A DNA stretch of 64,000 bases, taken from the IMG/VR virus record IMGVR_UViG_2706795432_000001, positions 1 to 64,000 of that record. One strand, 5' to 3'. Position 1 is the stretch's first letter, and each line of letters opens with the position of its first letter. This document shows positions 59,061 through 64,000 of the stretch, piece by piece. Position numbers and translations under genes: made by a program. The stretch comes from a virus. Its lineage: Duplodnaviria > Caudoviricetes. Under the pieces are notes generated by a model that saw nothing but the letters and a program-made list of their open reading frames with translations, searched no databases and was not told where the DNA came from.

Positions 59061-59147
59061 GTCATCATCCTCTGTGCTTGGTTAGTCCACCACGCTTTAC
59101 CATGAGGGGGTTTCCATGACCATATTAAACTGAAAGTCAATAAGTTT

Positions 59148-59225
59148 TGGTCGGAATGGAAGGATTCGAACCTTCGATTTCTCGGTCCCAAACCGAGCGA
59201 CTTAACCAGACTAGCCTACATTCCG
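59148..59225 (-). tRNA. tRNA-Pro (anticodon UGG)
   Basis: Acceptor CGGAATG/CATTCCG; anticodon arm CTCGG-TTTGGGA-CCGAG; T-loop TTCGAAT; encoded CCA. Confidence 0.95.
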
Positions 59226-59228
59226 CCT

Positions 59229-59304
59229 TGGTTGTGGTGGCTGGACTTGAACCAGCGACATTTCGATTATCGGTCGAACGCTCTACCAACTGAGCTACAC
59301 CACA
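59229..59304 (-). tRNA. tRNA-Ile (anticodon GAU), with C instead of U at position 33
   Basis: Acceptor TGTGGTG/CACCACA; anticodon arm TTCGA-CCGATAA-TCGAA; T-loop TTCAAGT; encoded CCA. Confidence 0.92.
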
Positions 59305-59332
59305 AAAAAGCCCACCCCCGTAGGGATGGGCT
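59305..59332 (-). terminator. Terminator-like hairpin abutting the tRNA-Ile 5' end
   Basis: AGCCCATCCC-TACG-GGGGTGGGCT followed by a T run. Confidence 0.7.
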
Positions 59333-59377
59333 GTTCTTTACCACTGTGACTGAATCAGTCAACAGGGAGATAGCAGA

Positions 59378-59491
59378 TCACCCCCCTCCCGAGAACCAAC
59401 GGGAGTAGAGGTTTCGGACCCAGACAGGCTGGGGGAGTACGTTCCAGCCGATAATCAGGCCAACACCCACTCCGAGTGCGAATTCAAACAT
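59378..59491 (-). CDS. 37-aa membrane peptide
   Basis: MFEFALGVGVGLIIGWNVLPQPVWVRNLYSRWFSGGG; AAGGAGG RBS; TAATG overlap with the upstream gene. Confidence 0.7.
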   Translation of the reverse strand: MFEFALGVGVGLIIGWNVLPQPVWVRNLYSRWFSGGG

Positions 59492-59718
59492 TATGCCACC
59501 TCCTTTTCTTTGGCTTCTACTGCGGCGAAGACTGCAAGGTTCTTCGCTTCCCACAGGCTCCGAAGAGCCAGTGTACATTCTGCCGAATCAGGCAGAGTTT
59601 CTACAAGGTTCACAGCCAGATCATAGAACGGCTTGGATGCTGCTTGCAGATGTTCGGGAAGATGGCTGTAACGGAAAAGGCTTACTGCCTTATCCATGCG
59701 TTGTTCATACGTCTGCAT
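59491..59718 (-). CDS. Small helical-hairpin protein, Tad1/Acb2-like (tentative)
   Basis: 75 aa from ATG 59718 (GGAG RBS); F.Y.HLP.HLQ..SKPF and P.S.E...AL..L.EA pattern. Confidence 0.6.
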   Translation of the reverse strand: MQTYEQRMDKAVSLFRYSHLPEHLQAASKPFYDLAVNLVETLPDSAECTLALRSLWEAKNLAVFAAVEAKEKEVA

Positions 59719-60868
59719 CTGGATCTCCAAAGACTTGGGAGGCTTTCACCGTGAAGCGAGAGGTCTCTCCTTCGATTTCATCGTAGATGACTGCTTGAGC
59801 CATCGCTGTCTCTCCGAAAGCTGAACCATAGAGATCAGGTTCTGACCAGTTGGAGGCTTGCTCCCACATTACTCCGGGGAACTGCTCGACCTTACGATGA
59901 TGTTTGTCTCCCGTCCAGACAGTAATGTGCTCCACTTCGGCTATGTCCTTGCGATAGCGTTGAAGAAACTGCATCACCAGTCGATCAGGTTTGATCTTGT
60001 CACCATGATGACCGAACAATGCCACTTTGCCAAAGATGTGCGCCCAGTAAGCATTGGGGTCCATCTCGACAGTGACATTCAGTTGGTTGTGATATCGCCA
60101 TTTGGCACCCTGAAGCAGAGCCAGATAGCTATCTCCATCATGGTTTCCTCGTTTGATCACGAGACGAACATCAGAGATTTGTGCAGCGATATCAGTGGTA
60201 TGGATGATTTGCTCACCCGTGGTATCCACGACTTTGAAATGACGAGAGTCAACATCGAGGATGTGATCAGATCCGTGAGTGGCAGTCATTGGCACCTGAC
60301 CATTAGCGTGGAGAACATCACCGTTGTAGTACAGGATGATCTCTTGGACTCCTTCCTTCTCGACGTGATCGAAGAGACGGCAGAGCCAGTCTTGAAGACG
60401 AGTCATGGCGATCTGAAGATCCCAGTCTCCGTATCCGGTTTCAGCACCCCATGCGAGAGCACCAGAATGAAGGTCATTGATGGAAATGAAGGCTTTTTTG
60501 ACCCTATCGGTCAAAAGCAGTGCGGGTGGTTTGAAAAGGACTGGAGATGTGCCTGTGAATTTGGCTGCAATTTCGTCGATACGATCTTCTTCTTCTTTGG
60601 TTTTGTCCTTGGAAAACCTGAAGCTGTAGGTTCGACCGTGTTTGTCTGGGGTCTGTGATTTGACCCATCCTCCATCTGGAATACCGATGAATCCCAATTC
60701 ATCCATTCCATCGAGAACTGCTTGTTCAGCTAGGTCACGGGAACCAATTCTCTTTTCCATTTGTTGAATTGATCGTCGGGCTGTGGATTCATGGACACCA
60801 AAATGTCTGGCCACATCCGTATAGGATGGCTTCCCATTCTGGGACCAATAGTCATAGTATTTGCTCAT
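59705..60868 (-). CDS. Calcineurin-like metallophosphoesterase with N-terminal HTH
   Basis: 387 aa; NDLHSG, NGDVLH, RGNHD, GHHGD, TGDKHH; HTH-like YTDVARHFGVHESTARR. Confidence 0.8.
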   Translation of the reverse strand: MSKYYDYWSQNGKPSYTDVARHFGVHESTARRSIQQMEKRIGSRDLAEQAVLDGMDELGFIGIPDGGWVKSQTPDKHGRTYSFRFSKDKTKEEEDRIDEIAAKFTGTSPVLFKPPALLLTDRVKKAFISINDLHSGALAWGAETGYGDWDLQIAMTRLQDWLCRLFDHVEKEGVQEIILYYNGDVLHANGQVPMTATHGSDHILDVDSRHFKVVDTTGEQIIHTTDIAAQISDVRLVIKRGNHDGDSYLALLQGAKWRYHNQLNVTVEMDPNAYWAHIFGKVALFGHHGDKIKPDRLVMQFLQRYRKDIAEVEHITVWTGDKHHRKVEQFPGVMWEQASNWSEPDLYGSAFGETAMAQAVIYDEIEGETSRFTVKASQVFGDPDADV

Positions 60869-60916
60869 GTCGGGAGTCCCTTCTTATCTAAGGTCAGGGA
60901 CTCCCTATCATCATGA

Positions 60917-61903
60917 TCAACCGTGGTAAACTTCATTCGGAATGAGCTTCCGATGCTGAATCCAGCCTGTGAGGTTTCCATGGAGATGCTCAGAATGCCA
61001 TCCTTCCAGATTCCCAGAAGTCGGACATTTGATCCGTTCATCAGGTTTTGCCTGATGCTCGAACGGCGAAGCATGAACACGTTCATCGTTCATCAGCAGC
61101 TTGGCTCGATCCAGTTCAGCAGTGATGGAGCCATCACCATTGAAAGGTTTGTACGAGATCCGAGCACAACGAGCAGCAGAGATGTTGAGCAGGATTTGAT
61201 TAACGAAATCAGTACCTTGCCCACCATAGAGACCTTTGACATGCTTGATGTCTTTCTCTGTGATGTATGGCATGTGCCACTGTTCCAGAGTCAGATTCTG
61301 CACGTCAGCTTCACTGATGGCTTTTGCCACCAGATTGGCCAGATCAATGAGATGAGGCTCTGCTGCATGGTGTTGACGAAGCCATAGGAAGTTATCCCAC
61401 TGGGTTGCTGTGATCAGTGTGTCCATCCACGAGAATGGCTCCAACAGACGGTTGGGGTTCTGTTTGTGATATCCAGCCTCCATAAAGGCTTCAGCTATAT
61501 CAGCAGCTTCTGTACGGGCATGAAGCCATGCTTCTTCATTGGTCATGCGGACAGTCTCATAGTCCAGTTCCTGAGTGATCTCATCCACTTGAGGGACATC
61601 GAGTTCAATCAGTTCATTGCACTCTTCAGAAGCCTGCATTCCCTTCTGGTTCTTTCCCCAGTGCCACGGCACATAAGGAATGGTCCGAACCTCATTCAGC
61701 ATGGTTTTGACCGGAACAGCACGGGAAGACCGAGCATTTCGACCAAAGACCCGATGGGTCATGATCTCACCATGAATAGGACGCGGGTATCGCATCCGAA
61801 TGGTGTAGATGTGGGGACAAGCATTTGCAGCAGAAGCCAAGATGACTTCCACCTGCATTTGAGGTTGTCCCGGATGGGTGTAGACAAGATTACTCGTTTC
61901 CAT
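60917..61903 (-). CDS. thyX: Flavin-dependent thymidylate synthase
   Basis: 328 aa from ATG 61903 (AAGGAG RBS); THRVFGRNARSSRA, SAARCARISY, HASPFEH. Confidence 0.9.
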   Translation of the reverse strand: METSNLVYTHPGQPQMQVEVILASAANACPHIYTIRMRYPRPIHGEIMTHRVFGRNARSSRAVPVKTMLNEVRTIPYVPWHWGKNQKGMQASEECNELIELDVPQVDEITQELDYETVRMTNEEAWLHARTEAADIAEAFMEAGYHKQNPNRLLEPFSWMDTLITATQWDNFLWLRQHHAAEPHLIDLANLVAKAISEADVQNLTLEQWHMPYITEKDIKHVKGLYGGQGTDFVNQILLNISAARCARISYKPFNGDGSITAELDRAKLLMNDERVHASPFEHQAKPDERIKCPTSGNLEGWHSEHLHGNLTGWIQHRKLIPNEVYHG

Positions 61904-62339
61904 CTTCAATCTCCTTTGCCAATTTCTTGGATTCCCAGTGATTGATAGCACGGTCAAGTTCTTGCTGCCCCAATTCAGCCAGTTGCCCGATATCGAGCTT
62001 TGGCGTTTTTGGGGTAGCACGGTCGTCGATGATGACACCCTGCATGACATTGTGAACGAGCATGGCAGTGGACGAAGCGATGAGCATGTAGTGAGGAATC
62101 CCGGTATCAGGATCCTTTTCTTCCCCATCTTTCAGTGCCTTGCAATGTCGTTCGATGGAATTGATCAGGGAGCGATAACTCAGCCCCTTCTCAAAGTTAC
62201 GGGCAGCATATTTATGCTCACCGAGGCCAAGACCTACAGCAGCCGCAACGACCAATTCAAATGGAACCAAGTCAGTGTCGATCTTGGTTCCAATGGATTG
62301 TCGCATGGCACCCGTTTCTGTGGTCCCCCACTCAGCCAT
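61890..62339 (-). CDS. dATP/dGTP diphosphohydrolase-domain protein (DUF5664)
   Basis: 149 aa; K...DLVP...G..KY..RNFEKG...S..RH...GEEKDPDTGIPH. Confidence 0.8.
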   Translation of the reverse strand: MAEWGTTETGAMRQSIGTKIDTDLVPFELVVAAAVGLGLGEHKYAARNFEKGLSYRSLINSIERHCKALKDGEEKDPDTGIPHYMLIASSTAMLVHNVMQGVIIDDRATPKTPKLDIGQLAELGQQELDRAINHWESKKLAKEIEDGNE

Positions 62340-63001: not shown

Positions 63002-63265
63002 TCAGATGGACCGCCACTGAAGATCCGGGGGTCCGAGAAATGCCATCGGCATCTCGTAGCCCAAATAATCAGGGGAGTCAGGATCAGTAGCCATGGCAAT
63101 CTGATCATTGAATTCCTCCTCAGTCATTCCTGTGTTTCCTTCCTGATACTCTTGGTTCAGGCAGGCAATCAGGACATCATTGTTTGACGGTAGATTGAAC
63201 ATTTCTTCTGTCAATTCAGACAGTTGAAACTCTCCGTCGATTCTCCAGAGCACGTAGAAGATCAT
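63002..63265 (-). CDS. Hypothetical acidic protein
   Basis: 87 aa; ATGA overlap with the dcd stop. Confidence 0.7.
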   Translation of the reverse strand: MIFYVLWRIDGEFQLSELTEEMFNLPSNNDVLIACLNQEYQEGNTGMTEEEFNDQIAMATDPDSPDYLGYEMPMAFLGPPDLQWRSI

Positions 63266-63750
63266 TCAAACTTCGCCTCCTGTGGATTGTCAGTTTGGTT
63301 TTGGTATTTGCCTTCATACTGAGCCTCATCAGAGGTCAGATGGAAGACCACTTGAGCAATCCCAGATCCAGCAGGAATCTTCAGGATACCATTGCCTTTG
63401 TAGGCAAGCTCAAGGGTTAGGAATCCCTTCCAGCCGGGTTCAATGACAGTGTTGAACACACTCAAGGCTTGTCTGGCCCATGTGCTCTTATCATGAACGA
63501 TACCCACCAGATTGGTAGGCATCTGGAATTCCTCGATAGCCGAAGCCAGAGTGAATGAACCCTCTGACACAGCACCATCACAAAAGACGAGTTGTCTTCC
63601 CTGACGGTTGTCGAATTGGATCTCTTGTTTGATCCGGATGTCATACCCTGCTTCTCCTAAACCAAAGGAAACACCATTCTCTTTGATCTTATCAACGTAC
63701 ATGTCCTTGATCGGAGATATCCGAAGCAGGGCTTCACGATTTACGATCAT
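63262..63750 (-). CDS. dcd: dCTP deaminase
   Basis: 162 aa from ATG 63750 (AGGAG RBS); AGYDIR, HDKSTWAR, VIEPGWKGFLTLEL, GIAQVVF, YEGKYQ. Confidence 0.9.
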   Translation of the reverse strand: MIVNREALLRISPIKDMYVDKIKENGVSFGLGEAGYDIRIKQEIQFDNRQGRQLVFCDGAVSEGSFTLASAIEEFQMPTNLVGIVHDKSTWARQALSVFNTVIEPGWKGFLTLELAYKGNGILKIPAGSGIAQVVFHLTSDEAQYEGKYQNQTDNPQEAKFE

Positions 63751-64000
63751 TGAGTTTCTCCTCTGGAAAAGCAGAAGCCAGAGCCTTGAGAACAAGACGC
63801 CAGACATTCTGCTGATTTCGTTTGTGGTTTTTGACGGAACCGACACGAAGAGGTGACTTCCAGACATGGGCATTCCGATACTCGGTCCCGTCTTTCTGTT
63901 TTCGAGCCACCTTACAGATGTAGTTTCCCACATCACGGCTGCCGGATCCATCATTGGCAATGATTGTGCGACCAATCTCTGTTACTTTGCCAGTGATAGC
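63734..64000 (-). CDS. Hypothetical protein, 5' end outside the window
   Basis: Frame stays open to the window edge (AITGKVTEIGRTIIANDGSGSRDVGNYICK...), so the track start at 63931 is internal. Confidence 0.65.
   Translation of the reverse strand, partial: AITGKVTEIGRTIIANDGSGSRDVGNYICKVARKQKDGTEYRNAHVWKSPLRVGSVKNHKRNQQNVWRLVLKALASAFPEEKLNDRKS

Follow-up and report, generated by a model that had tools for sequence, protein, structure and literature searches.

The gene considered here encodes a 75-amino-acid (aa) protein and lies in a 64,000-nucleotide stretch of viral DNA (the window; positions 1 to 64,000 of IMG/VR record IMGVR_UViG_2706795432_000001), between the genes for a 387-aa helix-turn-helix (HTH) metallophosphoesterase and a 37-aa peptide. 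We found that the 75-aa protein is homologous to proteins of Pfam family PF24729, which covers the helical hairpin of the phage proteins Acb2 and Tad1. The best explanation overall, to which we assign a probability of roughly 50%, is that the 75-aa protein is a candidate sponge and that the phosphoesterase acts separately from it. The 75-aa gene would then encode a small three-helix protein of a very large phage family that has no Pfam model and is sister to the Acb2/Tad1 hairpin. By analogy with its relatives, the protein would form a homo-oligomer, probably a hexamer, with pockets between its subunits that take up and sequester a nucleotide-type messenger from a host defence system; this ligand would probably be other than 3'cADPR, His-ADPR, 3'3'-cGAMP, cCMP or cUMP. 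The 387-aa phosphoesterase would be a widespread phage enzyme in its own right, sharing an operon with the hairpin and 37-aa genes only in N4-like roseophages.

Relationship of the 75-aa family to the Acb2/Tad1 hairpin

AlphaFold2 (AF2), supplied with a 20-sequence alignment, modelled the 75-aa protein with a mean predicted local distance difference test score (pLDDT) of 93 as an all-helical fold, in which a short N-terminal helix (residues 4-14) is followed by two long antiparallel helices (22-41 and 46-74). A profile search of 1.84 billion cluster representatives returned 5,024 family proteins at E≤1e-3 and 1,472 at E≤1e-10, the 5,024 representatives standing for clusters at 50% identity; several members carry the domain in two tandem copies. 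By tblastn, the domain occurs in 316 phage records with a core identity that is typically 45-60%. The family spans N4-like roseophages, a T4-like Acinetobacter phage, jumbo Erwinia phages, vibriophages and actinophages, and the hosts include Vibrio, Erwinia, Acinetobacter (with the T4-like phage ZZ1), Gordonia, Mycobacterium and Brevibacterium.

The link to PF24729 was established by profile-profile comparison. The part of the Acb2 homologue table of bioRxiv 10.1101/2025.08.24.671296 that was available to us contains a clade, referred to below as the soil clade, with a layout near that of the hairpin family (F-x-Y-L-x-P-T ... LPDGPDKTYxxRKLREVGMW). In that part of the table the hallmark motifs of the hairpin family itself were not found, which suggests that the family was not included there. 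Eight genes of the soil clade were taken from IMG/VR, and the five that were scanned are genuine PF24729 members (E-values from 1e-6 to 1e-10, at or above the cut-off). Using hhalign, the hairpin family aligned with this clade over 38-39 columns with probabilities of 79.9-88.6% and P-values from 1.4e-5 to 2.6e-6. The best run, which compared 175 family sequences with seven PF24729 soil-clade proteins, gave a score of 33.1 (probability 88.6%, P 2.6e-6), while 150 column-shuffled decoys reached at most 17.5 and 27 reversed or rotated decoys at most 15.0. On the same scale, a comparison of the validated Acb2 branches T4 Vs.4 and JBD67 Acb2 with one another gives no better than P 5.6e-5, and the soil clade gave P 1.2e-4 against the T4 branch and nothing against the JBD67 branch. 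The registers of the three alignments (family to soil clade, soil clade to T4, family to T4) are mutually consistent, and a hidden Markov model (HMM) of the soil clade matched two family members directly with E-values of 4e-5 and 1e-4.

In the profile register, residues S45-A58 (SAECTLALRSLWEA) fall on the '(S/P)-R-E-x-S-L-A-x-T-x-L-E-E-A' helix. The first-pass annotation, which was made from the sequence alone, had placed SRENACALTHVEEA of Tad1 against SAECTLALRSLWEA by eye, and the profile-profile alignment to PF24729 proteins arrived at the identical register; the by-eye match to the Tad1-type helix comprises 6/14 identities and is not significant by itself.

Two indirect signals agree with this placement. 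The Foldseek matches in BFVD are enriched in proteins named 'Acb2/Tad1 hairpin domain-containing protein' (six of the top 50), and of the 30 nearest clusters in the ESM Atlas, 26 have PF24729 in 14-35% of the proteins they contain (score 0.93; 217-222 of 256 features in common). Domain fusions point in the same direction: the family member P0157 carries a C-terminal Sequestin domain (PF21825, residues 87-144, E 1.5e-15), and Table S1 of bioRxiv 10.1101/2025.07.12.664507 lists further fusions in which the family domain is likewise N-terminal to Sequestin. The hairpin family is thus very probably a divergent sister group inside the Acb2/Tad1-hairpin superfamily. The first-pass annotation had proposed an Acb2/Tad1-like sponge; the distant hairpin homology holds on the hhalign, soil-clade HMM, ESM Atlas, BFVD and Sequestin-fusion results, and membership of Tad1 does not, the 75-aa protein being all-helical with no room for a second domain.

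Other members of the family have different partners. Among members such as P0092 and P0096, some bear an N-terminal PGDYG domain (PF14083, E 1e-5 in P0092, under its cut-off), and others have zinc-ribbon-like N-termini or C-terminal extensions of no known family. By the logic that sponges occur fused to other sponges, PGDYG may merit attention.

Possible sponge function and candidate ligands

Acb2 (PaMx33 p26, JBD67 orf24 and T4 Vs.4; PF24729) is, like the 75-aa protein, a small phage protein, and its protomer consists of a short and two long helices (10.1101/2025.08.24.671296), laid out as a short N-terminal helix and a long antiparallel pair. The second long helix of both follows the pattern (S/P)-x-E-x-T-x-A-L-R/T-K-L-x-E-A. 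The N-terminal F-x-Y motif of the family lies at the position of the base-stacking Y11 of Acb2, to which Y17 (Y in 85%, F in 10%) aligns only in a low-confidence extension of the alignment. The two groups differ in that the 75-aa family scores under the PF24729 cut-off, has 4-5 fewer residues linking the FxY motif to the first long helix, shows D/N-A/L where Acb2 has a conserved M-W pair in the last helix, and carries a near-invariant R53 in place of the cA3-contacting T74. With Tad1 the family has in common the helical hairpin covered by PF24729. Tad1 is about twice as long and has additional non-hairpin structure, whereas the AF2 model of the 75-aa protein is wholly helical and without a further domain.

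Sequestin (PF21825, the crAss001_48 family) is also a short helical phage protein that oligomerises, sequesters 3'cADPR and occurs C-terminally to a hairpin-family domain in the P0157 fusion; it is, however, a separate family and a dimer, and its model does not match the 75-aa protein. HMMs of Sequestin, Tad2 (PF11195) and Acb4 (PF13876) gave no match anywhere in the 75-kb phage genome to which the window belongs.

Across the 175 aligned family sequences, which were drawn from phages of Gram-positive and Gram-negative hosts, F15, H19 and L20 are invariant, S28, A35 and K59 are conserved at 99%, and E47, T49, R53, E57 and F31 at 95-97%. This pattern is easier to reconcile with a universal small-molecule ligand than with a protein target specific to the host.

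Members of the family have already appeared in a published screen. In IMG/VR, Tal et al. (10.1101/2025.07.12.664507) looked for short proteins whose predicted AlphaFold-Multimer assemblies are homo-oligomers with positive charge in the interface pockets. Three hairpin-family members appear in Table S2 of that study among its 124 candidates, modelled as 'hexamer', 'hexamer' and 'dimer/hexamer', a further likeness to Acb2; one of the three shares 57% identity with the 75-aa protein (E 4e-21). In the same study, Sequestin was discovered through its fusion to known sponges. From these analogies we infer a probable oligomeric state, a putative ligand pocket and a possible anti-defence role, and the 75-aa protein is a reasonable sponge candidate. 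A more specific proposal, which we offer only tentatively, is that the FxYxHLP...ERTxALRKLxEAK proteins, with more than 5,000 clusters, form an orphan branch of the Acb2/Tad1 sponges, that they sequester a messenger beyond the five tested, and that in roseophages they act together with a co-translated 37-aa membrane peptide. Candidate messengers would be a cyclic tri-, tetra- or hexanucleotide, N7-cADPR or an undescribed signal. An October 2026 review (PMC13712596) counts seven experimentally characterised sponge families, and the hairpin family is not among them.

Several results weigh against a sponge of Acb2 descent. According to Table S2 of 10.1101/2025.07.12.664507, none of the three family members inhibited type I or type II Thoeris, a 3'3'-cGAMP cyclic-oligonucleotide-based anti-phage signalling system (CBASS) or two Pycsar systems, which sets them apart from Tad1 and from Acb2, respectively, in Thoeris and cGAMP-CBASS, and which leaves the CBASS, Thoeris and Pycsar targets named in the first-pass annotation unsupported. 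This was a high-throughput screen of gene pairs in heterologous hosts with trinucleotides outside the panel, and we regard its negative outcome as informative, not final. At the level of residues, the phosphate-binding K26 of Acb2 aligns, in the low-confidence extension, with S28 (99%) of the family, with Lys or Arg at position 29 in 73%, and the C-terminal Q-P (proline) lid of Acb2 is missing. At the level of sequence searches, PF24729 (gathering score 27 bits) had no match in a six-frame search of the phage genome and matched only 3 of 102 family members at E≤1 (best 0.044), although the same model recovered the positive controls JBD67 Acb2 (3e-16) and T4 Vs.4 (7e-20). In the opposite direction, the family profile did not find Vs.4 or Acb2 in the T4 and JBD67 genomes, with ZZ1 as positive control at 1.6e-27, and hhalign of the family gave a null result against the JBD67-type Acb2 branch and only P 0.019 against the T4 branch.

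It is possible, if rather doubtful, that the protein has Acb2 ancestry and is no immune-signal sponge, and that its ligand is instead a conserved macromolecule of the host or else an ordinary nucleotide or metabolite, here as part of a nucleotide-metabolism block. In favour of this are the negative screen against five defence systems and the failure to keep the ligand-contacting lysine of Acb2 in position; the screen's authors themselves expect that, of the candidates with positively charged pockets, only a minority will be sponges (10.1101/2025.07.12.664507), and the 75-aa gene stands at the end of a block with dCTP deaminase, dATP/dGTP pyrophosphohydrolase and ThyX genes. This account does not readily accommodate the fusion to Sequestin, a domain that was itself found via sponge-domain fusions, or the fact that polar residues are very strongly conserved between phages whose hosts are distant, which fits a small universal ligand. 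Ligand switching is moreover known among Acb2 relatives, which also counts against this account.

A convergent or chance resemblance, with the 75-aa protein as an unrelated small helical bundle, is improbable. It could appeal to the missing HMM-to-sequence matches in either direction with the Pfam model, T4 and JBD67. The 75-aa protein also has no match in Pfam even at E≤10 and none in NCBIfam or PADLOC, and searches of the PDB were empty by phmmer and by profile. Fold searches of the PDB with the AF2 model (Foldseek, VIA-align wide and a VIA second look) returned generic helical bundles only, with no Acb2/Tad1 chain listed; for a helical protein of 75 residues such an outcome is uninformative. 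Against chance stand the hhalign score, which exceeds all 177 decoys, the register that is kept over three profile pairs, the direct matches of the soil-clade HMM and the independent concordance of the ESM Atlas and BFVD.

As a separate observation, the T4-like Acinetobacter phage ZZ1 has a hairpin-family member (1.6e-27) and no PF24729 match, while T4 has Vs.4 (PF24729) and no hairpin-family member. Mutual substitution of the two families in T4-like phages would fit this pattern, which comes from two genomes only.

If the 75-aa protein is a sponge, the failure of its relatives against the five standard signals means that its ligand could mark a missed defence pathway or messenger. With 5,024 clusters at 50% identity, the hairpin family is about as large as the catalogued set of 4,204 non-redundant Acb2 homologues (10.1101/2025.08.24.671296), and it is present in ecologically important marine roseophages. 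The homology to Acb2 supplies a concrete structural hypothesis together with residues for mutation, namely Y17, S28/K29, R53 and K59.

Gene string and phosphoesterase

The record behind the window is a complete virus genome of 75 kb. Window bases 59100-61000 share 96.4% identity with Dinoroseobacter phage vBDshPR2C and 75-80% identity with other N4-like roseophages (EE36phi1, DSS3phi2, the RpoP-V phages and RPP1), which belong to the Schitoviridae, Rhodovirinae; judged by this identity, the source of the window is an N4-like marine roseophage. The features of the locus are as follows.

59705-60868, minus strand: 387-aa HTH and calcineurin-like metallophosphoesterase; phrog_704 (label 'DNA repair exonuclease'), E 1.1e-95, residues 3-378
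60734-60853, minus strand: N-terminal HTH region of the phosphoesterase, about residues 6-45; HTH models, E 0.001-0.08
59744-60493, minus strand: metallophosphoesterase catalytic domain, about residues 126-375; invariant motif residues
59724-59728, minus strand: GGAGA, putative ribosome-binding site of the 75-aa gene, within the 3' end of the phosphoesterase gene; sequence reading
59491-59718, minus strand: 75-aa three-helix protein, probable divergent member of the Acb2/Tad1-hairpin superfamily and candidate nucleotide sponge; AF2 and hhalign
59378-59491, minus strand: 37-aa peptide, hydrophobic near its N-terminus and translationally coupled (TAATG); phrog_20849, E 1.7e-26
59309-59332, minus strand: hairpin and T-run resembling an intrinsic terminator, at the end of the gene string; 10-pair stem
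59229-59304, minus strand: tRNA-Ile (GAT); ARAGORN
59148-59225, minus strand: tRNA-Pro (TGG); ARAGORN

The open reading frame (ORF) of the 75-aa protein starts with an ATG at 59718-59716, 5 nt downstream of GGAGA (59728-59724), and overlaps the phosphoesterase gene, which ends in TGA at 59707-59705, by 14 nt. Its own TAA (59493-59491) and the start codon of the 37-aa ORF have one base in common (TAATG), and the 37-aa ORF lies 7 nt downstream of AGGAGG (59504-59499). PHROG matches to phrog_704 (E 1e-95), phrog_1761 (the 75-aa protein, E 9e-36) and phrog_20849 (the 37-aa peptide, E 2e-26) indicate that all three ORFs are real conserved genes. These coordinates and matches agree with the first-pass description of an HTH-metallophosphoesterase gene overlapping the 75-aa gene by 14 nt, followed by a coupled 37-aa peptide and tRNAs. 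The gene order is kept in six related roseophage loci, across which the 37-aa peptide is 72-78% identical; its Kyte-Doolittle hydropathy reaches 1.95 in 15-residue windows within residues 1-19.

The phosphoesterase matched the Pfam Metallophos model at residues 130-357 with E 0.015 (16.2 bits, cut-off 21.5), and several HTH models (HTH_28, HTH_Tnp_4, HTH_AsnC and others) matched residues 6-39 weakly (best E 0.0012). Among eight diverse homologues, D132, H134, G183-D184, H187, N242-H243, H288, G320 and H323 are invariant, so that the motifs DxH, GD, GNH, H and GxxH are present with all metal ligands (D132, H134, D184, N242, H243, H288 and H323); a family-specific block of T195, S200, H202, D205, D207, R209 and K212 is invariant as well. 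The AF2 model, built from a six-sequence alignment, has a pLDDT of 42, and only the HTH region is confident (three helices, pLDDT 80-86). A profile search of the PDB gave only a weak GerE-like HTH match, the catalytic domain having no PDB relative by sequence or profile, and no PADLOC model matched the protein.

By tblastn, the phosphoesterase occurs in 2,025 phage records, mostly at 24-32% identity, and its carriers include T1, Tls, Webervirus, Jersey-like Salmonella phages, vibriophages and Rhodobacter and Rhizobium phages. Over its full length, the 387-aa protein belongs to the phrog_704 metallophosphoesterases (T1, Tls gp66, Webervirus, Jersey-like phages), whose N-terminal HTH and catalytic motifs it shares; it differs in that the GHxH motif reads GDKHH in Rhodovirinae, the only group in which the hairpin and peptide genes come after this gene. 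We found no experimental function for phrog_704. Because of the HTH and a weaker next-best match to an exonuclease PHROG, nucleic acid or some other phosphoester is a likelier substrate of the enzyme than an immune signal. In 5/5 unrelated phages (Tls, RcAquaphina, Vibrio 95E33-2, KpKT21phi1 and RHph_Y2_4), the phrog_704 gene lies within about 2 kb of lysis genes (holin, endolysin/lysozyme, spanin), a position that could be functional or reflect an early/late boundary.

The two genes were rarely found together. The hairpin family was found in 0/5 phosphoesterase-carrying phages and the phosphoesterase in 0/4 hairpin-carrying phages, and the phosphoesterase and the 37-aa peptide lay within 4 kb of a hairpin gene in 6/80 IMG/VR loci, all from N4-like roseophages. 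A seventh N4-like roseophage locus (L035, IMGVR_UViG_2974595885_000001, 72,674 bp) has the hairpin gene with neither of the other two within 4 kb. Because the phosphoesterase accompanies the hairpin gene only in the six N4-like roseophage loci and co-carriage elsewhere was 0/5 and 0/4, the 14-nt overlap is best read as lineage-specific operon packing and not as a conserved two-part system.

The first-pass annotation had proposed a degrade-and-sequester module against CBASS, Thoeris and Pycsar, with the phosphoesterase as the enzyme that cleaves cyclic-nucleotide immune signals and the 75-aa protein as their sponge. The overlap within one transcription unit ending at the terminator, the conserved trio in six loci and the intact metal-binding residues are in its favour, but it is very improbable given the independent distribution of the two genes, including the seventh roseophage locus and the many phosphoesterase-carrying phages without a hairpin gene (among them T1, Tls and Webervirus), the HTH and exonuclease affinity of the enzyme, the missing PADLOC match, the failure of family members to inhibit the named systems, and a literature search on phage metallophosphoesterases and cyclic oligonucleotides in whose listed papers the word metallophosphoesterase did not occur. 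No tie of the phosphoesterase family to cyclic nucleotides was found, and its identification as a signal-cleaving cyclic-nucleotide phosphodiesterase is not supported, given the lack of a PDB relative for the catalytic domain and of a PADLOC match and the linkage in only 6/80 loci. Adjacency to the hairpin gene is thus no ground for annotating the phosphoesterase as an anti-signalling enzyme.

A general cassette of a hairpin gene and a micro-ORF was likewise not found, since the genes downstream of the hairpin gene are heterogeneous in the 80 loci and the 37-aa peptide is confined to the six roseophage loci. In L035, the hairpin gene is followed by an overlapping 49-aa hydrophobic ORF that has no phmmer match to the 37-aa peptide. 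A two-gene cassette that joins a PF24729 hairpin ORF to an ORF of 29-36 aa has been reported for mycobacteriophages of subclusters A5 and A8 (bioRxiv 10.64898/2026.10.05.756390), which resembles the pair of hairpin and 37-aa peptide genes described here.

Flanking tRNAs and nucleotide-pool genes

The terminator-like hairpin (59332-59309) has 10 pairs, of which 7 are G-C, followed by TTTTTTGTGGT, and is situated between the 37-aa gene and tRNA-Ile. Because the T-run ends only about 5 nt before tRNA-Ile (interval 59304-59332), the two tRNAs would have to be made via read-through and processing or from a promoter missed by the sigma-70 scan.

Just upstream of the phosphoesterase lies a nucleotide-pool block (61890-62339 and 63262-63975, both minus strand), in which ThyX and a dCTP deaminase-like gene accompany a MazZ-like dATP/dGTP diphosphohydrolase N-terminal domain (PF18909, 3e-22). 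Such a block might point to base modification in the phage DNA. The ORF of the ThyX-like thymidylate synthase (60917-62128, minus strand) is 403 aa long; its match to phrog_85 begins at residue 107, and its 5' part overlaps the dATP/dGTP pyrophosphohydrolase gene (61890-62339). Because relatives are annotated at about 292-307 aa, the true start of the ThyX-like gene is probably internal to this ORF.

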